Made by a program: the position numbers and the translations under genes | Notes under the pieces: generated by a model | Database searches by the model: none | The model's input: the letters and a program-made list of their open reading frames with translations, nothing else | Told to the model about the DNA's origin: nothing | Virus record (IMG/VR): IMGVR_UViG_2818991472_000001 | Coordinates: 32,001 to 96,000 of that record | DNA length: 64,000 nt | Strand: one strand, 5' to 3' | DNA from: a virus | Taxonomy: Duplodnaviria; Caudoviricetes | Shown here: piece by piece, positions 35,760 through 58,722 of the stretch | Position numbering within the stretch: the stretch's first letter is position 1 | Layout of the letters: every line of letters begins with the position of its first letter

Positions 35760-36086
35760 TCAGGCAGTGAGGGCCTGGGCGGAAGGCGGCGGTGAGGTGA
35801 TGCTGAGGTGGGGCAGCTGGTTCATGCCGAGTGCGATGTCCACCGTCAGTCCCGCTTTCTCCAGCACCTGGGCGCAGGTCTCGGTGATGTTGAAGACGAG
35901 CCGGGCGTTGGGCGGAAGGCTGGTGGCGACGTAGGTGACCCGGACGGTGCCGTCGGACAGGTCCTCGACCAAGTACCCGGCGTGGGTGACGACTCCGGTC
36001 CTGGAGAGGGAGGCGGCCACCAACCCGGCGTCCCGCAGTGCGTCCGCGCTGCGCTGGGCGAGGCCGGAGAGGGAACGCCGGGTCAT
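35760..36086 (-). CDS. Stand-alone copy of the recurrent alpha/beta module
   Basis: ADALRDAG...AGYLVE...VRVTY...AQVLEKAGLTV. Confidence 0.65.
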   Translation of the reverse strand: MTRRSLSGLAQRSADALRDAGLVAASLSRTGVVTHAGYLVEDLSDGTVRVTYVATSLPPNARLVFNITETCAQVLEKAGLTVDIALGMNQLPHLSITSPPPSAQALTA

Positions 36087-36535
36087 CTGGCACCGTCCAG
36101 CAGCCACGGCGGGACGGTCAGGGGCAGCTCGGCGATCTGGGCGGTGGCGATCCAGAACTGCCCGGACTCCGCCAGGCTGGCCAGACGGGCGGACCCGGTC
36201 ACTCCGGGCTCGTCCTGGTCCAGCAGCGCCTTGATCCCCAGCTCGAACTCTTCCTCGCGCTGTTCCCGGACGGCGGCCACCAGCTCCTCGTCGGTCAGTT
36301 CGTCCAGGTGGCGTACGCCCGCGTGCTTCCTGACCCGGCGCCAGATCGCTTCCCTCTCCTGCGCGCGGACGTAGGTGCCGACCTGGCCGTGGGGGGCGTG
36401 CTTGCGCAGGATCAGCAGGGAGTTGAACCTGCGGCGCTCGCTCTCGTAGTCCTCGCCGTGCCGCTCGGCGCTGGCCCGTATCCGCTGGGCGGCAAAGGCG
36501 ACCTGCTGTGCGGTGCGGACGGTGGAGTCGGACAA
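36083..36535 (-). CDS. Hypothetical helical protein
   Basis: Probable TTG start 36535 with GGGAG RBS. Confidence 0.6.
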   Translation of the reverse strand: MSDSTVRTAQQVAFAAQRIRASAERHGEDYESERRRFNSLLILRKHAPHGQVGTYVRAQEREAIWRRVRKHAGVRHLDELTDEELVAAVREQREEEFELGIKALLDQDEPGVTGSARLASLAESGQFWIATAQIAELPLTVPPWLLDGAR

Positions 36536-36747
36536 CGCTTCTCCCAGGTCAAAGAGCTGAGCTGCACGAGCACGGCGTGCGGAGTGACGTCCCGTCAGGG
36601 CATGCGCCAAAGAGCGCAGATGACAGACCGGGTGATCCGCACAATGCAATAATGTCAGCCTCTTGCGGGCGCTGCACAGGAACTGGCCAAAACCGAACGA
36701 GCCGATCCTGTGGCCCCCCACCAACAACCGCCGGAGAGCACCGCTGC

Positions 36748-37041
36748 ATGACCAAGAACCAGCCACCACCCCGACCCGACAACACCACCCCATCGAGTGA
36801 ACGCCGCCGGACCCTCACCCTCTATCTCTCGCTCATCGCCCTGGCCATCCTCGCCACCGGCGCGGTCTTCGTCTTCCTCTCCCCCGAGAAGCACACCCCC
36901 GCCGCAGCCGCGCTGTACGTCCTCACCGTCGGCGTCTGCGTGATCGTCATCATCGCGGTTCCCGACCTCCTGGCCTCCCGGGAGCGCCAGGACCGCACCC
37001 TCCCCCCGCCCAGGCCCTCCAAGGGCCGTACCGAGAAATGA
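36748..37041 (+). CDS. Two-TM membrane protein
   Basis: ATG 36748; two hydrophobic segments; hairpin at about 37043-37078 follows. Confidence 0.7.
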   Translation: MTKNQPPPRPDNTTPSSERRRTLTLYLSLIALAILATGAVFVFLSPEKHTPAAAALYVLTVGVCVIVIIAVPDLLASRERQDRTLPPPRPSKGRTEK

Positions 37042-37089
37042 ACGGTGCCCCGGCCGGGCGGACTCGGCCGGGGCACCGCGTGTTCATGA

Positions 37090-37691: not shown

Positions 37692-38489
37692 CTACTGGCG
37701 GCGGTACGCGGCGAGACGGCAGCGGATACCCCACCAGTTGACGTGCGCGGGGGACGCCGACACCTCCACCCACTCCTCGTCCAGCAGCTCGTAGAACCCG
37801 TCATCGGCGTTCGCCCCGCCCCAGCCCTCCCCCGCGTACAGCAGCAGGTCGCCCTGGTACACCGACAGGGCGTGGCGGGCGTGCTCGCCCTGGTGGGGCG
37901 GCCAGACCATCAGCAGCACACGGTCCGGGTGCGCGGCAGCAGCCTCGGCGCCCTCGACCAGCACCGTGGTGTACGGACCGCCGGAGCACCACCGGTTCTC
38001 CCAGCCGGGCGGCAGCGGGTCGTAGGCGGCGACGTCCACCCCGGCCTGCTCCAGCTGCCACGCCCAGTACCCCGTACCGGCGCCGACCTCGACCACGGCC
38101 CGGCCGCCGAGCTGCTCCACCATCCAGGTGATGTCGCCAGGGGACGGGATCGACCAGGCGTACTGCGTGCACAGCTGCTGCCGGGAGGCACCGAGGAGCG
38201 CGAGGCGCATGCTCAGCTCCGGCGCGAAGTACATCGGCTCCATTTGCACCTCGGGCATCGTCCCGAAGACCGGCGGCGTCGACGGCATCCACCGCACCAC
38301 CTCCCAGTACGGGTTCTGCACCCCGTCAGGAACGAGCTGGTCGTGCGGGCCGCCCGCGAGCGGCGCAGCGCCCTCCGAGAAGAAGAACGGCTTCTCCGGC
38401 AGCTCCGGGTTCTTCCAGGCGGCCTGCAGCGCTTCCACGGCCCGCGCGGGGTCGATCAGCGGGCCGTGCCCCTCAAGGATGTCGGTCAT
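37692..38489 (-). CDS. Class I SAM-dependent methyltransferase-like protein
   Basis: VVEVGAGTGYWA, AYD, LLMVWPP, LLYAGE. Confidence 0.75.
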   Translation of the reverse strand: MTDILEGHGPLIDPARAVEALQAAWKNPELPEKPFFFSEGAAPLAGGPHDQLVPDGVQNPYWEVVRWMPSTPPVFGTMPEVQMEPMYFAPELSMRLALLGASRQQLCTQYAWSIPSPGDITWMVEQLGGRAVVEVGAGTGYWAWQLEQAGVDVAAYDPLPPGWENRWCSGGPYTTVLVEGAEAAAAHPDRVLLMVWPPHQGEHARHALSVYQGDLLLYAGEGWGGANADDGFYELLDEEWVEVSASPAHVNWWGIRCRLAAYRRQ

Positions 38490-41023: not shown

Positions 41024-41092
41024 GGCAGGTGGTCTCCTGGTGGGGCGGCAGGGTCGGCGGGCCTGGCAGTGGCCCGCCTTCTGCACCCCAAT

Positions 41093-41132
41093 CTAGTGCA
41101 CCGCTATGCGCATAGGCAAGAGGGTTCACTAG
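41093..41132 (-). promoter_or_regulatory. Palindromic early-promoter repeat A
   Basis: CTAGTGCACCGCTATGCGCATAGGCAAGAGGGTTCACTAG. Confidence 0.85.
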
Positions 41133-41449
41133 GATTGGCGGCGCCCCCTCACCCGGTCCACCGCCCGCTGCGCCGCGCCCTGCCCGTGCTCGCGGTCGAA
41201 CAGCCAGCCGTCGAACTCCGTCGCCCCGGGCCGCAGGTCCACCTTCAGCGGCCGAGCGGCCACGTACTCGAACTGGCCGTCCGGGACCTGCTCAAGCCAC
41301 CGGCGAGCCTGCTCGACCGGCACGTCCTCGGGCACGGCGCCCATTGCCGCGTAGACCAGCGCCACCTGGCCACCGCCCCCGCCCAGCCCCGCCTCGTTGA
41401 ACAGCGCGGCCAGGACCTCGGCCCGGTCCAGCCCCGTGATGTCGATCAT
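41129..41449 (-). CDS. Hypothetical conserved phage protein
   Basis: MIDITGLDRAEVLAALFN...FEYV..RPLKVDL...FDR.HG.GAA. Confidence 0.75.
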   Translation of the reverse strand: MIDITGLDRAEVLAALFNEAGLGGGGGQVALVYAAMGAVPEDVPVEQARRWLEQVPDGQFEYVAARPLKVDLRPGATEFDGWLFDREHGQGAAQRAVDRVRGRRQS

Positions 41450-42024
41450 GAACGGTCCATCTCCGTCTCGGTGCGGTGGCTGGCCCAGGCGGCCAGCGTC
41501 TCGAAGTCGTCGTCGGTCAACCCGGTGGCCGGGTCGACCAGGCGCAGCAGCGCCGGGGCCGCGTGCCGGTCGGCGACGAAGGCGCGGTCGGCGTCGGTCA
41601 CCTCGTCGTCCACCCAGGCGAACGGCCGCCCGGCGGCGTACTCCAGGAGCGCGGCCAGCTTCCAGTGCACCCCGCCCGGCCGGTCCTCCTCCGGCGCGTC
41701 ACCGACCGGCACGAGCGGCAGGTCCGGCAGCTGCTCCTCGCCGCCGACCAGGCCGACCGCCGGTCCGATGTAGCGGTTGGCCAGCTCGTTCCAGCTGGTG
41801 CACCACACCAGGTCGTACGGCAGTGCGCGCAGCCGGGCGCCGTGGCCGGGGTGCAGCCACACCTTCGGCAGCCGCACGTAGTAGGAGGGCTTGCCCGGGG
41901 TGCCGCCGCTGCGCAGGTGGGTCCAGCGGTGCGGCGTGTACCCGGCCGGGCGGCCCTCGGGCCGGGTGCCGTAGGCGTTCAGCGGGCCGTCGACGTCCAG
42001 GAAGAGCAGCGGGCGGTCAGCCAC
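41446..42024 (-). CDS. HAD-superfamily (Swiss-Army-Knife RNA-repair type) phosphatase
   Basis: LLFLDVDGPLN, LVWCTSW, WK, FAWVDD. Confidence 0.85.
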   Translation of the reverse strand: MADRPLLFLDVDGPLNAYGTRPEGRPAGYTPHRWTHLRSGGTPGKPSYYVRLPKVWLHPGHGARLRALPYDLVWCTSWNELANRYIGPAVGLVGGEEQLPDLPLVPVGDAPEEDRPGGVHWKLAALLEYAAGRPFAWVDDEVTDADRAFVADRHAAPALLRLVDPATGLTDDDFETLAAWASHRTETEMDRS

Positions 42025-42361
42025 GGCCAGCCTCCCGGGCGCCGTGCACGGCGGGCGGGGCAGCGGAGAGCAGCACGTTGTACCGCAGGTGGCTGCTCCG
42101 CTCGGCGAGCAGGCCGTTCAGCCTGGCGGCGGCTCCCTGGGCGACCTCCAGCAGGCCGCGCTCGCGGTCGGTCAGGCCGTCCGGGCCGATGGCGGGCTCC
42201 CGGGGCTCGAAGCCCTCGGCGCCGCAGTGGACGCAGCGCCAGCCCTCGCCGTCCGGCCCGGAGTGGGTGGTCTCGGTGTCGTGGTCGTAGGTGTCCCCGC
42301 AGACCACCCCCGCCCGGTCGTCGGCCAGGGCCTGTTCCAGGCCCTTCGGCGGGTATGTCAC
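42017..42361 (-). CDS. Small Zn-ribbon hypothetical protein
   Basis: AGGAGGAG RBS; WRCVHCGAE. Confidence 0.65.
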   Translation of the reverse strand: MTYPPKGLEQALADDRAGVVCGDTYDHDTETTHSGPDGEGWRCVHCGAEGFEPREPAIGPDGLTDRERGLLEVAQGAAARLNGLLAERSSHLRYNVLLSAAPPAVHGAREAGRG

Positions 42362-42410
42362 GGTGCTCCTCCTTCGAAGTGCTGTGTTGCTGAGTTAAGC
42401 ATCTCTGCGG

Positions 42411-42785
42411 TCAGCGCGGCTGCGCCTCGGTGATCGACCAGTCGGCGGCGGCCCAGGTGGTGGCGCCGGTGTCGGGGTCGGTGCTCGGTTTCCAGGCCAG
42501 CGGGCCGCCGTGGGCCTCAGCCTCGTGCCGGGCGCCGCTCAGGTCCCCGTGCCGGGTGTGCTCGGCGCCGCGCAGCAGCAGCACCCGGGGGCGCCGGTCG
42601 GCGGGGACGGCCACCACGGTGTGGGCGGAGCGCTCCTCCCAGCCCCAGGCGCCCGTCGTGAGCAGCTGCGCGCCGGGGGCCAGGGAGGCGGCCATCAGCG
42701 CGCTCTCGATGTCGGTCCCCTTCCACAGCTCGGTGCGGTCGGGTGCCAGGACGGCCATCATCCGGTCCGTCACTCGGTGAGTCAT
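42411..42785 (-). CDS. Hypothetical protein
   Basis: GAGGAG RBS upstream. Confidence 0.55.
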   Translation of the reverse strand: MTHRVTDRMMAVLAPDRTELWKGTDIESALMAASLAPGAQLLTTGAWGWEERSAHTVVAVPADRRPRVLLLRGAEHTRHGDLSGARHEAEAHGGPLAWKPSTDPDTGATTWAAADWSITEAQPR

Positions 42786-43041
42786 GATCGTTTCATCTCC
42801 TCGTGTCCGGCCACCGTAGTCGGCGGCCGGGTAGCGGGCGCGGGGTTTGTCCGGGCCCATGATGGGCGGGGCGGCCGACACTCCCCCTGGCGCCGGGTGG
42901 TGGCGGCGCAGCGGCTGGCCATACTGGCCCGACCGCCGCCGGGCCGGGCGTGAAGGCGGCGCAGCGGGCCCAGGCGGGCCCCGGGAACCTCCGCCGGGGT
43001 CCTGGGCCCGCCCACGCCCGTTGAGCGCCTAGCCTGGTGGC

Positions 43042-43209
43042 ATGACACCTACGCGCTTCTTGATGTGCCCCGAGTGCGGCGGACCGGCTCCGGTAGACCC
43101 GTTCAACCAGATGGGCCCGCACGACCAGCCCGACGGCAAGCCCTGCGTGATGTCGTGGGATGACGGGGGCCGGGCGTTCCTGGCCAAGGCGGACGCGGAC
43201 TCCGCCTGA
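43042..43209 (+). CDS. 55-aa Zn-ribbon protein, probably leaderless (not in ORF track)
   Basis: MTPTRFLMCPECGG...H....PC; TAGCCT -10 six bases before the ATG. Confidence 0.55.
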   Translation: MTPTRFLMCPECGGPAPVDPFNQMGPHDQPDGKPCVMSWDDGGRAFLAKADADSA

Positions 43210-43230
43210 GCCCTACGGAGGGCAGGGCCC

Positions 43231-43959
43231 TCACCGGCGCAGCGCCGCGAGCAGCTCGGTGTACTTCTCCGGCTGCTCCTCGGGCCAGACGCCGTAGCCG
43301 TTGCGGGCCTCGTTCAGGTCGTGGGTGATCGCGGAGTACAGGGCCAGGACGGCCGGGTTGTTGCTGATCTCGGAGCGGTCGGCGGTCCAGTCGAAGCCGG
43401 TGTCCTCCAGCCACCCGGCGATGATCATGGCGCGGGTCTTGGTCCGGCAGTCCATCGCCACGATGACGCCCGGGGTGGCGTCGGCGGTCGGCAGGGCGAC
43501 GGTCCAGGCCATCGGGGAGTGGTTCGAGGGCTTGCGGCGGGCGACGACCAGAGTGGCCGGGGCGGCCGGGCGCGGCGGCTTGGCGGCGGGCTGCTCCGGT
43601 GCGGGGTGCTCGGCGAGCAGGGCCTTCACCTCGTCCAGGGTGTCGTACGCCTTGAACAGGCTGCTCCCGCCCCAGGTGCGGGCGGCGGCGGCCTTGAGCA
43701 CGGCGTCCGTGGCGCAGCGGCCGGACTCGACGAGCAGGATCTTGTGGTCCTTGGGCAGCACGGCGGCCGTGGCGAAGGTGCGGCCGTCCGGTCCGCGCAT
43801 CGCCTTCACCGTGCCGTCGCGGCGCACCGAGGTGACCAGCGCCGGAGTGAAGGTGACGGCCTCGGAGGGCTGCTCCTGGTTGATGTAGAAGGCGCGGTGG
43901 ACCTCGCGGTAGACCGCGAGCTGTCCCCGGGTAGCGCGCAGCGGGGCGGTGGTGGTCAT
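43231..43959 (-). CDS. Hypothetical cassette protein
   Basis: Follows repeat 44002. Confidence 0.75.
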   Translation of the reverse strand: MTTTAPLRATRGQLAVYREVHRAFYINQEQPSEAVTFTPALVTSVRRDGTVKAMRGPDGRTFATAAVLPKDHKILLVESGRCATDAVLKAAAARTWGGSSLFKAYDTLDEVKALLAEHPAPEQPAAKPPRPAAPATLVVARRKPSNHSPMAWTVALPTADATPGVIVAMDCRTKTRAMIIAGWLEDTGFDWTADRSEISNNPAVLALYSAITHDLNEARNGYGVWPEEQPEKYTELLAALRR

Positions 43960-44001
43960 CGGTGTCTCCGGTTCTTGGCAGGGTTGGTGACAGGCAGGAA
44001 C

Positions 44002-44040
44002 CTAGTGCAACGCTGTGAGTATGCGCAAGGTGTTCACGAG
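44002..44040 (-). promoter_or_regulatory. Palindromic early-promoter repeat B
   Basis: CTAGTGCAACGCTGTGAGTATGCGCAAGGTGTTCACGAG. Confidence 0.85.
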
Positions 44041-44498
44041 AACGTGATGGCCGCGACCGCCTCCAGCGTCATCGGCCCGCGCTGCGCCACCGGCCGGGGA
44101 GCGGCCGACCGCCGGACCTCCCCCCGGTCCACGGACACCGCGTACGGCGGCTCCGGCAGGGCCCCGACGTCCCCCTGCACCCTGACGCGCCCGGCGCGCC
44201 ACTCCCCCTGGACCGCCCCCATCACCTGCGCCCAGTGCGCCCGCGCCTGCGGCAGTTGCCCCGGCCCGTACGGGTGCGCCATCACCCGGGCCGCCCGCGT
44301 CTCCCCCACCCGGGCGGAGATCCTGGTGATCCACTCCCGCCGCTCCCAGGCCGGGGCTCCGCCGGTCGTGGTGCGCACGTCGGCGGCCCAGTGCTGAACC
44401 AGGGTGCGCCACCCGTTCTCGTGCACCACGTCCACGGTGCGCAGCAGCGCGGCGGCGGGGTCGGGGCGGGCGGCGGTCTCGATCGGGTGGGGGCTCAT
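44034..44498 (-). CDS. Hypothetical protein
   Basis: Start MSPHPIE with GGAGG RBS. Confidence 0.6.
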   Translation of the reverse strand: MSPHPIETAARPDPAAALLRTVDVVHENGWRTLVQHWAADVRTTTGGAPAWERREWITRISARVGETRAARVMAHPYGPGQLPQARAHWAQVMGAVQGEWRAGRVRVQGDVGALPEPPYAVSVDRGEVRRSAAPRPVAQRGPMTLEAVAAITFS

Positions 44499-44671
44499 GG
44501 CAGGTCGTCCCTCCGTGGCAGGCGGCAGGCAGGCGGTGGGTGATGCGGATTCCGTCGCCGACTGGCAGTGATCGTGCGGAATCCGTGGCTCGGCCCTAGG
44601 GGGCGAGACGACGGAATCCGTAGATTGGGCTACGGATTCCGTCGTCGGGGGTGGCGGCCCGGACGGGGGGC

Positions 44672-44911
44672 TCAGCCGGTGTGGACGGTCTCGCCGTCGA
44701 CGGTGACCTTGATCGGGATGGTGCCGTCCGGCCGGGTCGCGGTGCAGTCGTCGTCCTTGGAGGCGACGCCGATGAGCAGGGTGCCGTCCGGCTCGAAGGA
44801 GACGAACACCCACGTCCCCCCGATCTCCAGGGTGGGGCCCGCGTACATGTCGGCGGGGTGGAACTGGGCGTCGTCGTTGGCGCGCTCGGCGTCGGCGGCG
44901 GAAGAGATCAT
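44672..44911 (-). CDS. Small beta-rich protein (paralog of 45539..45772)
   Basis: F.PAD...EIGG..V....DGTL...V...R.D.T.P...TV....V.TG shared. Confidence 0.75.
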   Translation of the reverse strand: MISSAADAERANDDAQFHPADMYAGPTLEIGGTWVFVSFEPDGTLLIGVASKDDDCTATRPDGTIPIKVTVDGETVHTG

Positions 44912-45059
44912 GGCGAGTTCTCCAACTGGCTTGGCAGGGTTGTGAGTTGGCCGGACCGTGGCAGTGGTCGGCCGGTCCGCCCGGCGCTGCTCCGTGGCAG
45001 GGTGGCGCAGCGCCGGGGCGTGAACTGGCTTGCAGGGCTTGGCAGTTGCCCGGGTTGGG

Positions 45060-45449
45060 TCAGGCGGTGTGGTGCAGGTCGAGCACGCGGCCGACGTTGC
45101 CGCTGCCCGCCCCGGGGGTGCGGTGCGCGGCGCACCGGGGGTCGAAGTCCACGACGCTGCCCAGGGGGCTGGAGGTGACGAACACGACGGCCGACGCCTC
45201 CCCGCACACGTCCCCGGCGCTGCTGGTGAGCACGCGGCACGGGCGGGCGGCCCAATACCGGAGGATGGCGTCCCGGCCGTCAGGGGTGAGCTGGGCGTCC
45301 CACCCGGTGGGGGTGTCGGCGACCAGGCCGAGCCGGGCGGCCCGGTGGCGGGCGGTGCGGTGCTCGTCGCCGGTGACGGAGTGCTGAGTCAGCAGGCGCT
45401 CCAGGACGGTGCGCACGGGGCGGGACAGCGGGGCGGCGGTGGCGGGCAT
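45060..45449 (-). CDS. wHTH-like plus Cys domain hypothetical protein
   Basis: RLGLV...LTPDGR; C...C...C..H. Confidence 0.6.
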   Translation of the reverse strand: MPATAAPLSRPVRTVLERLLTQHSVTGDEHRTARHRAARLGLVADTPTGWDAQLTPDGRDAILRYWAARPCRVLTSSAGDVCGEASAVVFVTSSPLGSVVDFDPRCAAHRTPGAGSGNVGRVLDLHHTA

Positions 45450-45538
45450 GGCGGCCTCTCTGGCGGTCTGGGCGGGGTGCTGGAGGGAGCGGGGCGCAGC
45501 GGGCGGTGCTGCGCCCCGTGGGGGCGGCGTGGGCGGCT

Positions 45539-48624: not shown

Positions 48625-48729
48625 GGTGATCTTGAACCCTCTCAGTACCGTCCAACGCCCCGGGACCACCCCGGACCGCCCCACCCAAGGGGGCGCAGCA
48701 CCACCGCCACGCCCCCGCCCACCGCAACG

Positions 48730-49698
48730 CTAGGCCACCTCGGCCACCGGCTTGACCACCGCGACCATCAGCCGCTGCCACTTCGCCAGGATGCCGCCCG
48801 GGGGCACGTCCTCCAGGGTGATCACGCTCTCACCGCGCCCCTGCTCCCGGTACCCGGCCACCACCGCCGAGCGCACCAGCGCCACCGCCCACGCCCGGTC
48901 ACCGTGCTTGCTCCGGGTCGCGTGGGTGGGGAACTCCTCCCACACCCCCTCGAACAGCTCGCCCTGGGGCACCAGCGCCTCAGCGATGGCATCCGCGTCC
49001 GCCCGGCGCCGCTCCCCCTCCCGGTGCCAGTCCAGAATGGTCTGGTCCACCACGCGCAGCGCTGCGCCGTCGCGCCCCTCGATCAGCAGCACGCCGAACC
49101 CGGCCGCCTCCAGCGCCGCCTTAGCCTTGCCCACGGTGTCCGCGTGCCCCTCCGGCGCAGCGATGCGCGCCCCCTTGTCGTCGGAGAACGCCCGCTGGAA
49201 CGCCGCCTGGTTCTGGGCGCGGTAGTACCAGGACACCGTCACGGACGTGCCCCCGCCCTCACCCCGGCCGGGCGCGTCCTGCCGGAAGCCGTCGCTGTGC
49301 ACGCCGAAGAACCCTCCGGACTTGACGCTCTGCTCCAGCCCGGCCCCCTTCAGCACCCGGGTGATGGACCCCTTGACCGGCTCACGCACCGGCGCGGGCG
49401 CGGCCACCTCCACCACCGCCTGCTGCTCCCCGCCCTCACGCTGCTCCCGCTCGGCGCGGACCTCGGCAAGGGTGGCGTCCAGGGCTGCCTGGCGGTCGGA
49501 CTCGATGCCGGTGGCCGTGGTGAACCCGGTGTCGGTGAGGACGTAGCCGCCGTCCCCGGCGGCGCTCAGGTAGCCGTCGGCCGCGAGCGACACCAGGGTG
49601 CGCAGGTTGCCGGTGACGCGGCGCAGCGGGTTGTCGAGGGGGCTTTCGATCCCGGTGAGCAGGGCCTTGGACTTGGCGGGGCTGAGCTTGCGGGCCAT
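48730..49698 (-). CDS. Multi-module cassette protein (N-terminal wHTH-like)
   Basis: MARKLSPA...RTLVSL...GYL...VLTDTG. Confidence 0.75.
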   Translation of the reverse strand: MARKLSPAKSKALLTGIESPLDNPLRRVTGNLRTLVSLAADGYLSAAGDGGYVLTDTGFTTATGIESDRQAALDATLAEVRAEREQREGGEQQAVVEVAAPAPVREPVKGSITRVLKGAGLEQSVKSGGFFGVHSDGFRQDAPGRGEGGGTSVTVSWYYRAQNQAAFQRAFSDDKGARIAAPEGHADTVGKAKAALEAAGFGVLLIEGRDGAALRVVDQTILDWHREGERRRADADAIAEALVPQGELFEGVWEEFPTHATRSKHGDRAWAVALVRSAVVAGYREQGRGESVITLEDVPPGGILAKWQRLMVAVVKPVAEVA

Positions 49699-49742
49699 GG
49701 GGTCCTCCGGTGCTTGGCAGGGCGTTGGTGACAGGAAGAAAG

Positions 49743-49782
49743 CTAGTGCACCGCTGCGCGTATACGCAAGTGGGTTCACGAG
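49743..49782 (-). promoter_or_regulatory. Palindromic early-promoter repeat D
   Basis: CTAGTGCACCGCTGCGCGTATACGCAAGTGGGTTCACGAG. Confidence 0.85.
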
Positions 49783-49940
49783 ACTTCCCGGCGGGCCAGG
49801 GTGACAACCGGCGCCCCATCACGGCCGGTAACACGAGGTGGAGTCACCACCACGAACTATGACAATCAGTGACCAAAGGGGAAGGGCGCGCTACCCGGTC
49901 TCCCAGGTGCGCGCCCCGCTGTTGTGCCCCCGCTTCTGCC

Positions 49941-50444
49941 CTACTCCTCGGACCACCAGTCGGTGAGGGCCGGGTCGAGGAACGCGGCGTACTGCTCCTC
50001 TCCCAGGAACTCCCGCAGGCGCGGAGTCACCACCTGGGCCGTGGTGAACTCCTCCCACTCCGCGTCCACGTCCGCGCGGGCGGTCTCGTTGCGGTCCAGC
50101 CACACGGTGAAGTCCCCGGCGCTGCGGTCGAAGTCCCGAGCGTTCTCGACCAGGTGGTGCAGCAGGTCCTGAAGGATGGGGGTGCTACCGAAGGGCCCCC
50201 GGGTGCCGTACTCGCCCGGGGTCTCGTACTCAACCAGGAGGTAGCGGCCGTGGTGCCCGGACAGGGCGCCGTCTTCCTTGTCGTCCCCGAGCGCGATCCC
50301 CGTGCCGTCCAGCAGGGCGCGGAACAGGATGACGGCCCAACGCTGAATCTGAACGGTCCCCGGGTCGGCGGTACCGATGTGATGGAAACGGGCGGTGATG
50401 GCGTTGACCTTGATGCGGCCGGACGCGGCGATCTGCTGGGCCAT
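49941..50444 (-). CDS. Hypothetical acidic protein
   Basis: GGGAGA RBS. Confidence 0.7.
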   Translation of the reverse strand: MAQQIAASGRIKVNAITARFHHIGTADPGTVQIQRWAVILFRALLDGTGIALGDDKEDGALSGHHGRYLLVEYETPGEYGTRGPFGSTPILQDLLHHLVENARDFDRSAGDFTVWLDRNETARADVDAEWEEFTTAQVVTPRLREFLGEEQYAAFLDPALTDWWSEE

Positions 50445-50471
50445 GGTCGTGGGGTCTCCCTCTGGGGTAGG

Positions 50472-50681
50472 TCAGTTGGTCGGAACGTCGGCGGGGCCAG
50501 CGATGTACCAGCGATCACGATGGGGGCCACCACCGAAGCGGAAGACGAGCGGGCCGACGTGGATGTCTTGGTCGGTGGGGACGTCCACGTAGCTCGCCCA
50601 GTGGAGATTGCCGTTGAGCGCCTCAACGATCTTGATGGCGAGTTCGCTCCGGCTGGGGTCGGAACTGGGATTCCGGGCCAT
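50472..50681 (-). CDS. Small hypothetical protein
   Basis: MARNPSSDPS; GGAG RBS. Confidence 0.6.
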   Translation of the reverse strand: MARNPSSDPSRSELAIKIVEALNGNLHWASYVDVPTDQDIHVGPLVFRFGGGPHRDRWYIAGPADVPTN

Positions 50682-50736
50682 GGTTCTCCAATCGGGCCGG
50701 GCCCGCCCGGCAGTGGTACCGGGCGGGCGGGGGCGG

Positions 50737-51903
50737 TCAGCGCATGGTGAGGATGTTGTCCCGGGAGGACATGATGGCGGGCTGGTCGGTGTCGGCGTTC
50801 TGAACGAGCCAGGCCCGGCGGCCGTGCAGGGTGGTGGTGTCCCGCAGGATGGCCGGGAACGAGCCGCCGCCCTGGAGCGAGACGACGTTGACCAGGGTGC
50901 CGCTGGGGAAGTCGGAGACCACCGGGGAGCACTCGGTGGCCAGCCACTCCGCGCCGCCGTCGTCGGTGACCTTGACGCGGGTGGGCTCGCCGTCGCGGTA
51001 GACCATGCGGGCCACCCTGCGGACGGTGCCATCGGCAACAGCGACCCGGGCATCCCGGGGGTAGTCGAAGTGAGCCGGGGTGGGGGTGGTGGGGTAGACG
51101 GCGAGCCCGGCCGGGCCGGAGACGGCGGCGCGCACGTACTCGTTGCGGGTGACCAGGTTGGTCTCGATGCTGGCCCGCCACTCCCGGTACGGGTCGTTGG
51201 TGAAGGCGTCGACGATGGCGCTCAGCTTGGGGCCGGTGACGCGGACGACGCCGGGGCCGCCGCTCTCGACGGTGCAGCCGGTCAGCCCGGCGGCGTCGAG
51301 CAGGTCGAGGGCGGGGCCGATGGGCGAGTGGCTGCGGTGGCCGACGCGGTCGGCGATGGGGCCGCTGTTGGGGGCGTCGGGCGCGGGGGTGGTGTCGGTC
51401 ATCTTGGTCACGGTGCCGGAGAGTTCGCGGATCACGATCACGTCGCGGCCGTCGTCGCTCTTCTGGCGGGTGACGGCGGCGCCGCGCCACACGGCGGCCA
51501 CGATCCGGGCGCGGACCAGGGGCGGGGTGATGATGCGGCCGGGCTCGGGGATGCCGTTGGCGGTGACGCTGGTGTTGTACCGGTTGGGGTAGGTGCCGGT
51601 GGCGGGGTTGCAGGCCATGGCGTCCGCGATGGTGCGCACGTGGTCCCTACGGGCCTTGCTCGCCTGGGCGTCGTCGTCACCGGTGGGGGGCTCCTCGGCG
51701 TGGCGGACGGCTTCGGCGCGCCCGGCGGCGGTGAGCAGCACGCGGCGGTTGGTGCCGGTGCCGTGCTCGAAGGCCAGGTCACGGCGGATGAGGGCGTTGG
51801 CGGTGCCCTTGGGGGCGTGGACCTCGTGGCCGAAGGCGGTGAGGGCGTCGAGGAGGGCGGTGATCATGGTCGGGGTGAGCTTGGCGGGCTTGTCCGTGGC
51901 CAT
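50737..51903 (-). CDS. Multi-module cassette protein (wHTH-like plus SH3-like modules)
   Basis: KLTPTM...TANALIRRDLA...LLTAAGR; after repeat 51950. Confidence 0.75.
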   Translation of the reverse strand: MATDKPAKLTPTMITALLDALTAFGHEVHAPKGTANALIRRDLAFEHGTGTNRRVLLTAAGRAEAVRHAEEPPTGDDDAQASKARRDHVRTIADAMACNPATGTYPNRYNTSVTANGIPEPGRIITPPLVRARIVAAVWRGAAVTRQKSDDGRDVIVIRELSGTVTKMTDTTPAPDAPNSGPIADRVGHRSHSPIGPALDLLDAAGLTGCTVESGGPGVVRVTGPKLSAIVDAFTNDPYREWRASIETNLVTRNEYVRAAVSGPAGLAVYPTTPTPAHFDYPRDARVAVADGTVRRVARMVYRDGEPTRVKVTDDGGAEWLATECSPVVSDFPSGTLVNVVSLQGGGSFPAILRDTTTLHGRRAWLVQNADTDQPAIMSSRDNILTMR

Positions 51904-51949
51904 GGTGGTCTCCAGTCCTTGGCAGGGTTGGGTGGTGACAGGAAGAAAG

Positions 51950-51989
51950 CTAGTGCACCACTTCGCGTATACGCAAGTGGTTTCACGAG
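51950..51989 (-). promoter_or_regulatory. Palindromic early-promoter repeat E
   Basis: CTAGTGCACCACTTCGCGTATACGCAAGTGGTTTCACGAG. Confidence 0.85.
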
Positions 51990-52035
51990 AGTGGGGCCGG
52001 GCGGCCCGGGGTGACGGGGCCGCCCGGCTGTCTAG

Positions 52036-52905
52036 TCAGTAGTCCAGGCCCCACGCGGTCATGCGCTCGGACCACTCGCCCAGCACGGTGTGCACGGCCG
52101 TCAGGTCGTCGTACGTGGCGGTGCCGTCGTCCACCAGGCCGAGCACGCTCATGCCCGCCATGTTGGCGTCGGCGATCTCCTCGCGGGTTTGCGCCCGGTG
52201 CTGGCGGAAGCCGGGCAGGTACTCGCCGTAGACGGTGAGAGCCACGTCGGCGACCGCGAACACCCACGACGTGTAGGTGCCCCACGGGCTGTGTTCGATG
52301 TCGTCCCGCATCATCTCGGCCATGATCGCGTCGTAGCCCGGGGTGCGGCCGGTCTCGGGGTGCTCGGGCAGGCGGGCCGCCGCCTTGTGCCACTGGGCGT
52401 AGCGGGCCATGGTGCGGAACGCGGCGGCGACGTCGTCGGTGGTCACCTCGGTGTCGGTGACGTCGTCGGTGTCGATCATGTCGAACACCATCGCGGCCGG
52501 GTAGGTGTCACGGTAGGCGTTGGCCACGACTGCCGGGGTGGCGTGCGCGGTGGTGTCGTCGAGCGCGGTCCCGGTCCGGGCGTAGTGCACGGCGCTCAGC
52601 GCGATGATCCAGTCGACGATGGTGTCGTGGTCCAGGTCGTTGGTGCGGATCTCGTCGATGAGCTCGCGGTAGCCCTCGGTGTTCCAGCCGACGCGGATGC
52701 CCTGGGGGGTGCGGTTGACGGTGGTCCCCAGGATCTCCCACCCGTCGGTTTCGATGCCGGGCCAGTCGGCGGCGGTGGGCTCGCTCGCGCCGCCGAAGTA
52801 CAGGTGGGTGTCGGTGGTCTCGCCGGGGCGGCCGATGACCAGTTCGACGTGCCAGCGGGCCTCGGACGGGGCGACCTGCGGGCGGGGGGAGGGCATGGCG
52901 GGCAT
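52036..52905 (-). CDS. Acidic cassette protein
   Basis: After repeat 52950. Confidence 0.75.
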   Translation of the reverse strand: MPAMPSPRPQVAPSEARWHVELVIGRPGETTDTHLYFGGASEPTAADWPGIETDGWEILGTTVNRTPQGIRVGWNTEGYRELIDEIRTNDLDHDTIVDWIIALSAVHYARTGTALDDTTAHATPAVVANAYRDTYPAAMVFDMIDTDDVTDTEVTTDDVAAAFRTMARYAQWHKAAARLPEHPETGRTPGYDAIMAEMMRDDIEHSPWGTYTSWVFAVADVALTVYGEYLPGFRQHRAQTREEIADANMAGMSVLGLVDDGTATYDDLTAVHTVLGEWSERMTAWGLDY

Positions 52906-52949
52906 GAGGGCTCCAGGGGCGTTCGGGTGCGGTGGTGACAGGAAGAAAT

Positions 52950-52989
52950 CTAGTGCACTGTCATGAGTATGCGCAAGACAGTGCACAAG
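52950..52989 (-). promoter_or_regulatory. Palindromic early-promoter repeat F
   Basis: CTAGTGCACTGTCATGAGTATGCGCAAGACAGTGCACAAG. Confidence 0.85.
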
Positions 52990-53041
52990 AATGGGTGCCG
53001 CCCCGTCGTCTCCCGGGGCGGCACCCTCTCTCTCCGCAGCG

Positions 53042-55879
53042 TCAGGCGGGGAGCACGGTCACCGTGATCTCGTCCTCCCGTTCGACCGCCCACCCAGCGG
53101 CCCGGAAGGCGGCCTCATGGGCCCCGGAGAGGGCGCGGGCGAGCTGCTCCCCCTCGCCGTCCGCCCAGACGTTGCACGGGGCGGTGACGCTCACCCGGTC
53201 GTGCAGCCTGGTCAGCTCGTCGGCCGGGGTGTTGTCCACGTTCACCGAGCCGTCGCGCAGGTGGGCGGGGAGCTGGGGGTAGACGCGGTGGCCGATGGTG
53301 CCAAGCTCGGTGTTCTCCCGGCTGAACCCGGCCCGCCACAGCACCTTGCGCGCCTCCACCACGGCCGGGGTGTCCGGGCGCAGGCCGTCCCGGGGATCGG
53401 TGAGGCTGCCGTCCGCCTCCACCGTGAGCCCGTAGCCGTAGCCGACCTGGGGCGCCAGGGTGCTGCTCTCCCGGGCGTTGAGGCCCTCGGCGCGCAGCGC
53501 GGCGACGGCCGCCCGGACCTTCTCCACCGGGGTGGCGTGGGAGAAGTTGACCAGGCAGTAGACGGCGGCGGTGGCGTGGTCGGGGATCGTGTACCGGGCC
53601 GGGTCGGAGCAGTGGCCGGGCATCCTGTCCGCCTTGACCAGGCCGAGGGTGGACAGGATGGAAGTCACCTTCCCTGCAAGGGAGTTGGGGCCGTCGCCGG
53701 GGATGATGTGCCAGACCATGTGGACGGTGCCGGTGCCCAGGGCGGCGGTGGCGGCGATCATGTCCGGCCTGCTGGCCACGGCGAGGAGCGAGCGGTTCCC
53801 GTAACGGGTCTTCAGCCACTGGTCGACCTGGGCGCCGGTGACGGTCAGCTCAGAGCGCTGCTTGCCGTCCAGGTAGGCGGTCTGGCGGTACATGGCGGCC
53901 GGGTCGGTCTTGACGGCCAGCCACTGGGCGCGGATGCGCTCGCTGTCGTCGGCCGCCGGGCGGCTCCACTCCCCCGTGCTGTTCTCGCCACGCTGCCAGC
54001 CGGTGCGGGTGAGGGCCTCGGCGTAGCGGGCGCGGCGCTCGGCCGGGTCGTGGTCGGTCTCCCAGCCCCTCGGGTGCTCGTGCAGGACCAGGAGGCCGGT
54101 GTAGGCGCCGCGCAGGTCGAAACTGGTCATGACGGTGAAGCCCTCGTGCTGCTCGCCCATGGGGGCGAAGCCCGCGCGGCTCAGCGCCTGGGCGGCGGCG
54201 TCGCGGTCGGCCTCGGCGCGGGCCTGCTGCTGGGGCAGGTCGCGCAGGGCGGCGAGCAGCTCGGCGGCGGTGGCCGCGTTGGCGGCCTGGCGGTGGGGAG
54301 CGGGGTGGCTGCGGTCGGTCAGCGCGTGCCAGCGCAGGCTGTCAGGGTTGCTGCTCTGTCGCCAACTCACCTCGTAGGAACGGCCGTTGGCGGTAGTGAA
54401 CAGCCACCAGTTCGACTCAGGGAACTTCGGGTTCATGGGGCGGATGGACTCGCCGTCGCCGACCAGGGGCATGGTGCGGACGATGCGCGGCACCTCGGGC
54501 AGAGCGCGGACGGCGGCGCGGTAGCAGACGTGGGGGAACTCGGCGCCCTCCTCGTGGGCGGTCCACCCGCCGGTGATCTCGTAGCCCTCCCGGCGGATGT
54601 GCTCGGCGACCTCGTTCAGCGTCACGGCCTCGGGGGTGGCGACGCCGTGACCGCCCACCTGCCAGTGGTTGCAGCGGCACACGCAGTCGAGGGCGATGGA
54701 GACGCCGACGAACGGGGACGCCTTGAACACGCGGACCTGCCGGGCGACGTGGTCGCAGGCGGGGGCGGCCGGACGGTGGGCGCGCGGCAGCGGGCGCGGC
54801 TGCACGGGGCCGGTGACGGCCTCACCCACGGTGGCGAAGGCGCCGAACGGCGGCTGCGGGACCACGGCGAAGGCGGGCTCAGGGTCGGCCACGGCCACGG
54901 GCGCGGGGGCAGCGTCGGGGGCCGAGGCGGGCTGCTCGAAGACGTCGACACCTTCGGTGACGCGGACGGCGGCCAGCGGCGCGCGGTCGAGGAGCTTGGC
55001 CACCTCGTCCAGGGCGGCCTGGCCGCGCTCGGCGGAGGCCCGGTAGGCGTCGCCGTCGCTCCGGCCGCAGGTCCAGGCGACCCGGACGCGGTTGCTGCCG
55101 CGCAGGCGGCGCAGGTACAGGCCGTCGGTGTCGAAGCCGCCGAGCTTGTCGGACTGGGCGAGCGTCAGGCTGGCCCGCTTCAGCGCGGCGCGGACGGCGG
55201 GGACGCTGAGCGCCGGGGCGGCGGGCGCGGTCTCGGGGGCGGGGGCGACGTCGGGCAGGTTCTGGGCGAGGGCCTCGGCGCGGTGGTAGACGGCGAGGTA
55301 CCCGTTCGGCAGGACGTGGACGACGTGCAGGCCCCTGGCGCGCAGGGCCTCGGCCATCGGCTCCAGGTCGATCCCGTAGCCGTGGACGGTGACGCAGCGG
55401 CGCTTGGTGTCGCTGGAGGCGGAGAAGCCGTGGCGCTTGGTGTCGCTGTAGCGGGGGAACTCGGCGGTGTCGAGCATGGCGGAGATGCTGGCGCCGGTGA
55501 TGCCGAACGAGCGGGCCTTGCGGCGGGCGGCCTTGGTGGCGCGCTCGACGCAGCGGGAGTCGGTGCAGGGCTGACCCTTGCGCAGGGCGTGGTGGTCGAG
55601 GTGGCCGTTGATCTTGCCCGCGTTCTTGACGGAGAGGGGGCAGGCGTCGAGGGCGGTCTGGTCGTAGAGCCAGGGGCGGTCGTACGGGTCGCGGGCCTTC
55701 AGCGGGGCGGCGTCGACGTCGTCGATCAGCGTCTTGGCCCAGGTGATGGCCTCCTTGGGCGTCATGGTGCGGTTGGGGGCGGGCACGAGGTGGTCGTTGA
55801 TCTTGATGATCGTCGGGTTGTACTGGTTGCCCTGGGGACGGGTGGCCTCGATGGTGCGGCCCTTGTGGGTGGTCTTCAC
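53042..55879 (-). CDS. Large multi-module cassette protein (about 945 aa)
   Basis: True start GTG 55879 (VKTTHKGR) after repeat 55929; several copies of the recurrent module. Confidence 0.8.
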   Translation of the reverse strand: MKTTHKGRTIEATRPQGNQYNPTIIKINDHLVPAPNRTMTPKEAITWAKTLIDDVDAAPLKARDPYDRPWLYDQTALDACPLSVKNAGKINGHLDHHALRKGQPCTDSRCVERATKAARRKARSFGITGASISAMLDTAEFPRYSDTKRHGFSASSDTKRRCVTVHGYGIDLEPMAEALRARGLHVVHVLPNGYLAVYHRAEALAQNLPDVAPAPETAPAAPALSVPAVRAALKRASLTLAQSDKLGGFDTDGLYLRRLRGSNRVRVAWTCGRSDGDAYRASAERGQAALDEVAKLLDRAPLAAVRVTEGVDVFEQPASAPDAAPAPVAVADPEPAFAVVPQPPFGAFATVGEAVTGPVQPRPLPRAHRPAAPACDHVARQVRVFKASPFVGVSIALDCVCRCNHWQVGGHGVATPEAVTLNEVAEHIRREGYEITGGWTAHEEGAEFPHVCYRAAVRALPEVPRIVRTMPLVGDGESIRPMNPKFPESNWWLFTTANGRSYEVSWRQSSNPDSLRWHALTDRSHPAPHRQAANAATAAELLAALRDLPQQQARAEADRDAAAQALSRAGFAPMGEQHEGFTVMTSFDLRGAYTGLLVLHEHPRGWETDHDPAERRARYAEALTRTGWQRGENSTGEWSRPAADDSERIRAQWLAVKTDPAAMYRQTAYLDGKQRSELTVTGAQVDQWLKTRYGNRSLLAVASRPDMIAATAALGTGTVHMVWHIIPGDGPNSLAGKVTSILSTLGLVKADRMPGHCSDPARYTIPDHATAAVYCLVNFSHATPVEKVRAAVAALRAEGLNARESSTLAPQVGYGYGLTVEADGSLTDPRDGLRPDTPAVVEARKVLWRAGFSRENTELGTIGHRVYPQLPAHLRDGSVNVDNTPADELTRLHDRVSVTAPCNVWADGEGEQLARALSGAHEAAFRAAGWAVEREDEITVTVLPA

Positions 55880-55928
55880 GGCAGGTCTCCCGGTTGCTCG
55901 GGGGCGGTCTTCCTTGGCACCGCTGAAT

Positions 55929-55968
55929 CTAGTGCAACATAATGAGTATGCGCAAGATGGTTCACTAG
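55929..55968 (-). promoter_or_regulatory. Palindromic early-promoter repeat G
   Basis: CTAGTGCAACATAATGAGTATGCGCAAGATGGTTCACTAG. Confidence 0.85.
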
Positions 55969-56043
55969 ATTCGTTCTGGAGACGCCTCGGCGGCCGGGCC
56001 CGGTAAAGGGGCTCCGGCCGCCGAGGGCAGGAAGAACCGCAGG

Positions 56044-58722
56044 TCAGGAGGTCTCCTCCACGGCCTCCACCGCGCCCCGGTTCTGGGTGAACGAGACGAT
56101 CCGCACCAGGCCGACCGCCTCCAGGTACTCGACGTCGGCCGCGTGGACGCTCGCGGGCTCGTAGGCCCGGCGCTTGCCGCCCTTGCCCGGCTTGTCGACC
56201 CAGTGGACGGCCCGGCGGTTGGCCCGGATCGTCTCCAGCAGGGTCTCCTGTGCCTTGGTCAGGTGCTGGGGCAGCTCGGCAGCCAGGTCGGCCGCCAGCG
56301 CGGCGACCTCGTCGGGGGTGGCGACCCAGACCCGGCGAGCGGCGTTCGGGGCGATGTCGCCCCGGGACAGCGTGGGGCGGCCAGTGACGCCGTCGACCCA
56401 CACCCGCCGGGGCAGCTCCGCCAGCGGGTTCGTGAACCGGTCCCGCTCGACCTTGCCGTACTCGTCCGTGTCGACCCAGGTGAGCAGCTTGGCCGCCGCC
56501 GCGTCCCGCACGTGCAGGTACGCGCCGTACTTGCTGGTGTTCAGGGCGATGGCGACCGCCGTCGCGACGTTGATCAGCGGCCGGAGCCCGGTGCCCTCGT
56601 CGACCTTGCTGCCGGTCACCGCCGCCACCACGGCGGACAGCTCGACATCCTCGGGCTTGTAGCGGTGCACGACCTGGTCGGCGGTCAGGTCGCCCCCGGC
56701 GACCAGCTCGGCGAGGTAGCGCAGGCCGTTCGGCTTGTCGTGGCCGGGCACCTCCAGGGCGTCCAGCCACACCTCGAACTGCGCGCGGATACGGGTGATG
56801 CCCAGGCCCAGCATCACGCGCTGTTCCTCGGTCTGCGCGTCCAGCACGGCCCGGGTGAGCTGGCGCAGCCGGTCGCCGCAGGCGACGGCCTTGGCCTCCC
56901 AGTCCGTTTCGAACGGGCGCTGCTCGGGGCGGGGCGGGTCGAAGCTCTCCGGGGCGGGCGGCATGGCGCGGCCGTCCGGGGCAGCCATGATCACCACGTG
57001 CTCGGCGCCGCCGCCGCGCAGCTCCTCGGCGCGCACCTGGGCGTCGTCCCACACGTAGTCGTCGGCGCCGGTGTGGCGCTCGCCGCCGCTGGTCCAGGCG
57101 AGCACGTAGCGCTTACCGGCGGGCAGCGCCGAGGCCGGGGCCGTCGCCCACACCACGGCACTGCTGGCGACGACGTCCCGCCAGCCGTAGCCGCGCAGGG
57201 CCTGGGCGTAGGCGTTCAGCTTGTGGTCAACGCTGTTCGGCTCCTCGCCCGGCTGGGCGCCCATGACCCGGGTGCCGTCGAGGAACTCAAAGACGCGGAC
57301 GTCGTACTCGCTGCCCTCGACGTAGAAGCCGCTGGCGGCGGGGTTGCCGGTGCGGATGTCGTCGCCCACCACGCGCACCGCGCGCTGACCGTCGTCCGTG
57401 AGCACGTGGACGGCGGCGCGCACAGTGGCCAGGCGGTCGAAGCGCGGGGAGGTGCCCTCGGTGATGTTGGTGTCGGTGGGCGGGGTCACCCACAGCAGCT
57501 GCGACGAGGCCATCTCGTCGAAGGTCCACCCGGCGGCGGCCAGGGCCTGGCCGTACTCCCTGAGCTTGGTCAGGGCCTTGCGGTCCTTGGTGTCCCGGAC
57601 CCAGGTCAGCTCACCGGCGGCGTAGTCGTAGACGGCGATCCGGTCGTCGCGGCGCTGGACGACGAACCCGGAGGTCTGCTCGAAGTCCTCGGGGTCATCC
57701 GTGACGGGGGCGGGGTGGTGCCCAGCGGCGGCCAGCACGCGGACGGCGGCCTGCACCACGGCGTCGTCGGCCTGGTCCGGGTAGCAGCCGTGGGCGGTGC
57801 CGCCGTGGACGACGACCGTCCCTTCGATGGGCTCGGCCACGCGGACGGCCAGGACGGTGGCGGGCTGCTGGGGCACGGCGGTGTTCTCCTCGGTGGTGTC
57901 GGGCTTGGTGGTGGCGCTGGCGATCCAGAACTTCTTGCTGGGGTGGTGGAGAGTGTCGGACATGTGCTCGGTGTAGGTGGCCAGGCCCTTCTCCACCAGG
58001 GACTGGACGGTGCGCAGGCTGATGCCGTAGCCCGCGTGAAGCTCGCCCTCCTGGAGGCGCTTCCACGCGTCGGCCTGGGCCGGGGTGAGCGTGATGCCGT
58101 CGGGGGTGGTGAACGTCTCCGGCTTGGCCTTGACGGGCTCGGGACGGGTGCTCGTGCCGGTGACCTTGATGATGTGCTGGTCGGTGCGGTCGTAGACCTC
58201 GGCCGTCCAGCCGTCGGCCCGCAGGGCCTGCACGAACTCGCCGATGTCGTCCTGCAGGGCCTCGCTGACGCCGACGTCGACGCTGTCCAGGCGCTCGAAC
58301 GCGAAGTACGCCTTCGGGCCCTTCCCGGCGGCCTCCAGGGTCTGAACGACCCGGGCGACGACGGGGGCGCCCTCCACGCGGGGGCGCGGCTCGGCGAGCG
58401 CGGTGACCTCCAGCGCCCCTTCGCGCGGGGACTTCTCGTTGTGCTCGACGTCGAAGAAGTCGGAGAGGTACGCGGCGTAGTCGGCCGCGAACTCCCGTGC
58501 GATCCGCTCGCTGCTGCCCAGCCCGACCTTGTCCAGGTGAGGGCCCCAGTAGAGGGAGACGTAGGAGCGGGCCCCCGCGCCACCGCTGCTCAGGCGGGCG
58601 CCGGGCTTGACGGAGGGGTGGGTGTAGCTGGACTCCACCTTCACGGAGACCTGGAACCCGGCCCGCTTCAGGCGGGTCTGGACGAGGGCGACGGTGATCG
58701 TGGGCTTCGTGGTCTCGGGCAT
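56044..58722 (-). CDS. Large multi-module cassette protein (about 890 aa)
   Basis: Start MPETTK after repeat 58766; tandem internal module duplication and two wHTH-like units. Confidence 0.8.
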   Translation of the reverse strand: MPETTKPTITVALVQTRLKRAGFQVSVKVESSYTHPSVKPGARLSSGGAGARSYVSLYWGPHLDKVGLGSSERIAREFAADYAAYLSDFFDVEHNEKSPREGALEVTALAEPRPRVEGAPVVARVVQTLEAAGKGPKAYFAFERLDSVDVGVSEALQDDIGEFVQALRADGWTAEVYDRTDQHIIKVTGTSTRPEPVKAKPETFTTPDGITLTPAQADAWKRLQEGELHAGYGISLRTVQSLVEKGLATYTEHMSDTLHHPSKKFWIASATTKPDTTEENTAVPQQPATVLAVRVAEPIEGTVVVHGGTAHGCYPDQADDAVVQAAVRVLAAAGHHPAPVTDDPEDFEQTSGFVVQRRDDRIAVYDYAAGELTWVRDTKDRKALTKLREYGQALAAAGWTFDEMASSQLLWVTPPTDTNITEGTSPRFDRLATVRAAVHVLTDDGQRAVRVVGDDIRTGNPAASGFYVEGSEYDVRVFEFLDGTRVMGAQPGEEPNSVDHKLNAYAQALRGYGWRDVVASSAVVWATAPASALPAGKRYVLAWTSGGERHTGADDYVWDDAQVRAEELRGGGAEHVVIMAAPDGRAMPPAPESFDPPRPEQRPFETDWEAKAVACGDRLRQLTRAVLDAQTEEQRVMLGLGITRIRAQFEVWLDALEVPGHDKPNGLRYLAELVAGGDLTADQVVHRYKPEDVELSAVVAAVTGSKVDEGTGLRPLINVATAVAIALNTSKYGAYLHVRDAAAAKLLTWVDTDEYGKVERDRFTNPLAELPRRVWVDGVTGRPTLSRGDIAPNAARRVWVATPDEVAALAADLAAELPQHLTKAQETLLETIRANRRAVHWVDKPGKGGKRRAYEPASVHAADVEYLEAVGLVRIVSFTQNRGAVEAVEETS

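Follow-up and report, generated by a model that had tools for sequence, protein, structure and literature searches.

The DNA analysed here is a stretch of 64,000 nucleotides (hereafter the window), bases 32001-96000 of contig C8 (IMG/VR virus record IMGVR_UViG_2818991472_000001) in a nine-contig, 10.1-Mb actinomycete assembly. Between positions 35,760 and 58,722 of the window lie six minus-strand genes, here called A, B, D, E, F and S, in whose products copies of two small protein domains, module 1 and module 2, were looked for (Table 1). A preliminary description of the window, made by eye, had presented these products as a bead-on-string mosaic of the two modules. Profile tests, together with the Pro/Ala/Thr-rich linkers that separate the modules, bear out this picture for a core set of proteins, while about half of the single copies fall away.

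The contig measures 155 kb at 69.6% GC, against 71.6-73.9% for the other contigs of the assembly and 73.0% for the main chromosome. Judged from its sequence, it is the genome of a large tailed phage, because the window holds matches to portal, tail, endolysin and head-maturation protease families and because the portal (phrog_2833, E-value 5e-146 in a scan of the PHROGs collection) is ~40% identical to the portals of Rhodococcus phages Finch and E3, Gordonia phage RedWattleHog and Bixzunavirus mycobacteriophages. No close relative of the contig was found in the phage collection. The phage-family matches sit in the first half of the window; the module-bearing genes are located in the non-structural arm, where nearly all genes are read from the minus strand. 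None of ten cassette proteins matched PHROGs, and Pfam returned for the cassette proteins only a match of S to PGM1_C and a sub-threshold match of one A module to DUF5768.

Gene calls were based on frame analysis of GC content at third codon positions (GC3), which upheld the coordinates previously given for A, B, D, E, F and S. An additional open reading frame (ORF), 45060-45905, had been drawn too long, as the coding signal covers only its 45060-45449 part and a distinct gene occupies 45539-45802. A palindromic promoter-like repeat (family D2) occurs in eight copies, directly upstream of the minus-strand starts 41086, 43959, 47845 (D), 49698 (E), 51903 (F), 52905, 55879 (B) and 58722 (A). Of the six genes with modules, five thus stand directly behind a D2 copy, and because the element adjoins each start upstream, all five large module-bearing genes open a cassette. 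The earlier placement of the family under hairpin promoters agrees with this arrangement, in that all eight elements precede first-in-cassette genes.

Table 1. Genes, repeat elements and module copies considered in this work (hhalign values for module 1 are against the profile of cellular homologues; HMM, hidden Markov model; aa, amino acids).
Feature	Position in window	Strand	Details
Gene A	56044-58722	minus	892 aa; first gene behind repeat copy 58763-58813
Gene B	53042-55879	minus	945 aa; first gene behind repeat copy 55926-55976
Gene D	46751-47845	minus	364 aa; first gene behind repeat copy 47890-47940
Gene E	48730-49698	minus	322 aa; first gene behind repeat copy 49740-49790
Gene F	50737-51903	minus	388 aa; first gene behind repeat copy 51947-51997
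Gene S	35760-36086	minus	108 aa; stand-alone module 1
45060 protein	45060-45449	minus	129 aa (GC3); separate gene at 45539-45802
D2 promoter-like repeat, eight copies	41090-58813 (span)		~50 nt, palindromic; starts 41090, 43999, 47890, 49740, 51947, 52947, 55926, 58763
Module 1 in S	35763-36086	minus	hhalign 45.8, P 6e-8; 37.4 bits with HMM built without S
Module 1 in D	47555-47827	minus	hhalign 33.5, P 1e-5; 17.6 bits, E 1.5e-5 with HMM built without D
B_m2, module 1	54959-55207	minus	hhalign 25.1, P 5e-4, 72 columns; 8.5 bits with HMM built without B
B_m4, module 1	53951-54202	minus	hhalign 24.2, P 8e-4; 15.4 bits, E 8e-5 with HMM built without B
B_m5, half-module (first helix and strands only)	53420-53521	minus	hhalign 18.2 (P 0.008) and 21.8 (P 0.001, 34 columns); HMM 5.8 bits
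A_m1, probable module 1	58150-58377	minus	hhalign 18.6, P 0.008, 56 columns; missed by HMM built without A
A_m2, module 1	57472-57765	minus	23.0 bits, E 3e-7 with HMM built without A; hhalign 14.0, P 0.088
A_m3, module 1	57133-57444	minus	hhalign 18.6, P 0.012, 76 columns; 10.8 bits with HMM built without A
E middle, module-1 candidate, not confirmed	49015-49389	minus	hhalign 15.1 (P 0.066) and 16.0 (P 0.039); HMM ~4 bits
Module 2 in E	49519-49692	minus	hhalign 18.6, P 4.6e-3, 53 columns in register; above all 420 controls
Module 2 in F	51715-51882	minus	hhalign 23.1, P 5e-4, 53 columns; HMM 10.4 bits, E 0.002, shuffle maximum 4.8
Module 2 in A (N-terminal winged-helix part)	57976-58104	minus	hhalign 24.3, P 2.7e-4, 39 columns; residues 226-268 of a 911-aa reading

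Module 1 is a domain of ~90-100 aa with the element order alpha-beta-beta-beta-alpha-beta-beta. For hhalign we used a chromosomal profile built from 32 cellular homologues of S and no phage proteins, with 400 random 95-aa segments, drawn from the window's other proteins, as controls. Leave-one-protein-out HMMs were in addition assembled from cellular representatives and the remaining phage modules, and against these the best of 860 shuffled sequences reached 9.7-11.5 bits. Each of these HMMs picked up the protein that had been left out of it. Control hhalign scores had a median of 9.75 and a maximum of 18.1, the top ones being two short helix-Gly-strand matches. A score of at least 14 over at least 55 aligned columns was attained by none of the 400 controls, as compared with six candidates.

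By these tests module 1 stands alone in S and occurs once in D, both as first proposed, with two or three copies in A and at least two in B. The S protein aligns over its full length to the cellular family at 30-33% identity and scores 29.6 and 27.4 bits against two chromosomal-family HMMs (E ~1e-8 to 1e-9 among the window proteins), and D scores 12-14 bits against the chromosomal-family HMMs. The tandem pair that had been seen in A is confirmed, with A_m2 and A_m3 31% identical over 99 aa (BLASTP E 3e-8); A_m2 also matches PF19072 (DUF5768) at 18.4 bits, short of the 27.2-bit cut-off for membership. Several copies had been claimed for B, and two of them hold, B_m2 and B_m4 (the latter given as an example at 53995-54205), whereas B_m5 is only half a module and the remaining stretches were not supported. 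The copy proposed for E could not be substantiated, further copies placed at the N-terminus of A gave no significant hhalign score, and three other proposed segments reached at most 14.3 (P at least 0.05). The middle of F scored 16.8 (P 0.011) against the chromosomal profile. At the DNA level, a repeat finder showed that repeat family D5 covers helices of A_m2, A_m3 and B_m4 and the second helix of A_m1. A combined module-1 HMM, run over the whole 10-Mb genome, found only these phage proteins.

Across 30 module-1 sequences, near-invariance is confined to the positions A, L, G, G, G, V, L, A, L, G and W. Surfaces and charge vary between the phage and cellular copies. Because conservation is limited to glycines and the hydrophobic core and no catalytic site is conserved, module 1 looks like a non-enzymatic binding scaffold, a reading that fits this pattern of conservation.

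Module 2 was assessed with a profile built from the long forms of the cellular family described below, and 420 controls gave a maximum score of 17.5 over 12 columns. The alignments support the assignment of module 2 as a putative winged helix of ~55 aa in A, E and F. Of the places where it had been suggested, those in E, F and the middle of A (once) stand, while the 45060 protein (hhalign 12.1 and 14.6) and the C-terminus of A (not significant) do not. Its original label as winged-helix-turn-helix-like is supported by the AlphaFold model of a cellular homologue: of the 50 structural matches listed for its N-terminal domain, the majority are MarR/HxlR/ArsR-type winged helices. A helix-turn-helix (HTH) followed by a beta-hairpin wing is seen in the cellular model, and the phage copies are assigned by profile alignment only. 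Pfam and NCBIfam gave no match to a curated HTH family for A, E, F or the cellular proteins. The isoelectric point (pI) of the winged helix is 10.8 in the cellular protein, 10.2 in F, 8.1 in E and 6.4 in A.

The two modules are brought together by a cellular protein family. Compared with 400 Streptomycetaceae genomes, S gave weak full-length matches (~22 bits, at the 30-33% identity noted above) that carry the module-1 signature, and the full ORFs of these homologues form a conserved family (proteins P0009, P0012 and P0017 among them) with two forms. The short form (~163 aa) consists of a helix followed by module 1, and the long form (~230 aa; for example in Peterkaempfera and Streptacidiphilus) of a winged helix, a long helix and module 1. 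The N-terminal segment of the long form has the module-2 signature LS/TxAQ ... KGLA ... YLT..G. We also note that the short form (L011, L018, L022 and others, on Streptomyces chromosomes) opens with a conserved GFE.ATGDGP motif, then a long helix, then module 1, and that in the long forms the winged helix sits ahead of this motif. Within one genus (proteins labelled Streptomyces), 328 of 362 genomes have the family, mostly with one match per genome, and it comprises 748 protein clusters; among those listed, all are named ‘hypothetical protein’, most are from Streptomyces, and none has a Pfam domain. The family itself matches nothing in Pfam or NCBIfam, and the gene neighbourhood was not conserved across three genomes. 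On the strength of these profile and sequence comparisons, both modules are the two domains of one cellular family, and the phage and cellular copies share ancestry. No member turned up in this assembly's chromosome; among all six-frame ORFs of the 10-Mb genome the sole match is S on the phage contig (E 6.7e-5).

Fold predictions were made with AlphaFold 2 (AF2) for S and for a cellular long form. The cellular model (44-row alignment) has a predicted local distance difference test (pLDDT) score of 91.4, with a winged-helix-like N-terminal domain in which helices 14-22 and 34-42 are followed by a hairpin (46-49/54-57) and a further helix (59-74), then a long helix at 101-119, and a module 1 of helix 137-147, strands 161-170 and 176-182, helix 189-206 and strands 210-215 and 221-226. 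The S model (30-row alignment, pLDDT 83.8) shows the order a-b-b-b-a-b-b and the same topology as the cellular module 1. In these models, module 1 is predicted to be a two-layer alpha/beta sandwich. When both models were compared with the PDB by Foldseek, nothing reached E <=0.001, a profile search of PDB sequences returned nothing meaningful, and judging from the models no solved structure convincingly identifies the module-1 fold. In a library of viral models, the nearest entries are uncharacterised phage proteins of small size, several of which belong to mycobacteriophages, with three at E <=0.001 and a template modelling (TM) score of ~0.63 for two. Searches of the Atlas structures with S and with residues 320-530 of A, the sole structural check on an A copy, led to the same three actinobacterial clusters.

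The one Pfam family that S matches above threshold is PF18105 (PGM1_C), at 27.0 bits over a 22.5 cut-off, with residues 15-57 (the first helix and three strands). This family is the C-terminal domain of PGM1, the ATP-grasp peptide ligase of pheganomycin biosynthesis. Pfam found no ATP-grasp domain in the cassette proteins, ten module segments scanned separately contained no PF18105 match, and the second PF18105 match of the genome (on contig C1) is absent from the top hits of the module-1 HMM.

Other searches for relatives of these proteins returned little. An all-vs-all BLASTP of the window proteins (E 0.01) recovered no cross-protein module similarity and only three unrelated paralogue pairs, an HMM made from the two sequences of the A tandem pair found nothing further in the window or genome, and a word-indexed homologue search with A returned only A. 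A phmmer search of S against 1.8 billion representative proteins listed only long repeat proteins, which we judged spurious. A blastn comparison of the A-B stretch with the phage collection gave no relative. When A and B were compared with a plasmid collection (blastn and tblastn), only a homologue of the B C-terminus (Kitasatospora) and a short match of the B N-terminus (Streptomyces plasmid) appeared. The former covers the C-terminal 218 aa of B (53042-53700), 54% identical to part of a 427-aa ORF on a 1.7-Mb linear plasmid of Kitasatospora sp. NBC_01519. Three copies of that ORF occur on the plasmid, all with the same scores, so that it probably lies within a repeated element there.

On balance, we consider it probable that these early-arm proteins of a Streptomycetaceae-host tailed phage are non-enzymatic two-domain assemblies that likely act as DNA- or protein-binding takeover factors. 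Under this proposal, the five cassette-opening genes and the small S gene would be made early in infection, the winged helix, where present, would bind DNA, the varied module-1 units would bind partner proteins or form oligomers, and the module proteins together would redirect host processes. Phages house functions of host takeover and counter-defence in modular early proteins, and the analysis provides five proteins that would otherwise be orphans with a concrete domain map. It also defines a new domain family, outside Pfam and NCBIfam, that ties a very widespread Streptomyces protein to the presumed early genes of a large, previously unseen actinophage.

Several points weigh against this proposal. 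The scores of A_m1 and A_m3 lie only slightly over the best controls, and about half of the single module calls made by eye fail the tests, a sign that by-eye motif calls over-count in high-GC proteomes. The AF2 models cover S and one cellular homologue only. When 60 other genomes of the genus to which the assembly belongs were sampled, just 3 had the cellular family, and with no copy in the host sequence there is no obvious host counterpart for the phage modules to mimic. Scans of viral contigs with A, B and D gave no close relatives, and the module-1 profile had no match in four related large actinophages, though an empty answer there proves little; from these searches, the arrangement of modules may be peculiar to this phage.

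The charge of the module copies varies widely. Module 1 has a pI of 8.6 in the cellular protein, 4.5-5.2 in the A copies and 9.5 in B_m2, and the net charge of the complete A protein is -29. One more ambitious and rather speculative idea, on the whole unlikely, is that module 1 is an undescribed target-recognition domain diversified by the phage, with A and B acting as polyvalent early hubs, the winged helix tethering the hub to DNA, and the near-universal Streptomyces protein serving as the cellular prototype. Each differently charged module-1 copy would then capture a different host protein or nucleic acid. A reusable binding domain with a cellular prototype would open both the cellular family and the phage proteins to experiment.

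The same acidity of the A copies could be read as mimicry, and the suggestion that the module arrays are anti-defence decoys that imitate or sponge host immune proteins draws on it as well as on the position of the genes in a putative early region behind repeated promoter-like elements. We find this unlikely, with B and F not acidic and PHROGs linking the proteins to none of its known phage families; a decoy of a host copy in particular is disfavoured because the host genome lacks a cellular homologue to imitate. We rate as quite unlikely the proposal that module 1 belongs to the T3SS (type III secretion system)-chaperone/YbjN (TY-chaperone) superfamily, in which case the proteins would be chaperone-like adaptors binding extended peptides. 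TY-chaperones are described as having a meander sheet of five strands, one face of which carries two helices (PMC9503650), and the element order in both AF2 models agrees with it. The accompanying matches are weak, with Pfam giving YbjN at E 0.03 for D and TY-Chap3 at E 0.11 for B_m4 (15.1 bits against a cut-off of 22 for PF10722 and 13.6 against 27 for PF22552), and Foldseek giving YbjN, AmyR, ExsC and SigE at E ~0.05 and TM 0.24; neither YbjN nor the T3SS chaperones appear in the lists of the structural aligners.

Foldseek also listed the C-terminal domain of T4 MotA (E 0.04), MotA of Acinetobacter phage 133 (E 0.046) and the sigma appropriation complex, from which one could picture MotA-like factors whose winged-helix or other N-terminal domain and ‘double-wing’-type alpha/beta DNA-binding domain redirect the host's RNA polymerase to phage promoters. 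The very basic winged helix of the cellular protein would suit such a role, and the repeated promoter-like elements could serve as targets; the matches have TM ~0.3 and a root-mean-square deviation of 7 A, MotA is absent from the top lists of the structural aligners, and the A copies of module 1 are acidic, so that we hold this to be very unlikely. Finally, a compositional artefact, in which high-GC proteomes simply abound in amphipathic Ala/Leu helices that end with Gly and an aromatic residue, is highly improbable overall: short helix-Gly-strand stretches did carry unrelated window proteins such as the 37692 protein to an hhalign score of 18.1, and several of the by-eye copies match only the short motif, but same-proteome controls never aligned long in register, A_m2, B_m4, D and S scored above every shuffle in the leave-one-out HMMs, and the motif [AVFL]L...G[WFY] was counted 9 times in the six proteins, where 0.66 would be expected, and 3 times in the rest of the window, where the expectation is 3.4 (a post hoc test), which refutes the artefact for the core set and leaves it standing only for the unconfirmed copies.

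Some further genes of the window deserve mention. The 37692 protein (37692-38489, minus, 265 aa), gave the best false-positive module-1 scores through its stretch VGAGTGYW...LEQAGVDV, a Rossmann-like GxGxG sequence. It may be an enzyme of methyltransferase-like type, though it has no match in Pfam. On either side of the 45060 gene lie the minus-strand paralogues 44672-44911 (79 aa) and 45539-45802 (87 aa), 35% identical at E 4e-10. Overlapping neighbour paralogues are likewise found at 60412-60987 and 60984-61610 (minus; 33% identity over 106 aa, E 7e-14), the 60984 protein having no Pfam match. The adjoining minus-strand genes 16861-17637 and 17668-18714 have a common N-terminal domain of ~170-215 aa (64-75% identity); the longer matches endolysin/amidase families, and the pair looks like a duplicated lysis-gene module. 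The 821-aa product of 6836-9301 (minus) combines matches to a head-maturation-protease family, DUF7178 (E 5e-32) and the large phage family phrog_2774 (function unassigned, E 3e-69).

Among known systems, candidates for the closest to module 1 include phage tail terminator proteins (lambda gpU and relatives) and the TY-chaperones (CesT/YopN-type, YbjN, TY-Chap1-3), the latter sharing its element order without support from structural alignment. The likeness of S to PGM1_C spans 41 of 54 profile positions, and S is a 108-aa stand-alone protein, not the C-terminus of an ATP-grasp ligase. For module 2 the known counterparts are the MarR/HxlR/ArsR winged helices, from which the phage and cellular copies differ in matching no Pfam HTH family. 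The nearest relative of both modules is the cellular family itself, which holds them in one chain and whose profiles detect the phage copies. The cellular proteins have one copy of each domain and are basic, whereas the phage proteins have up to three copies of module 1, extra unique regions and varied charge.

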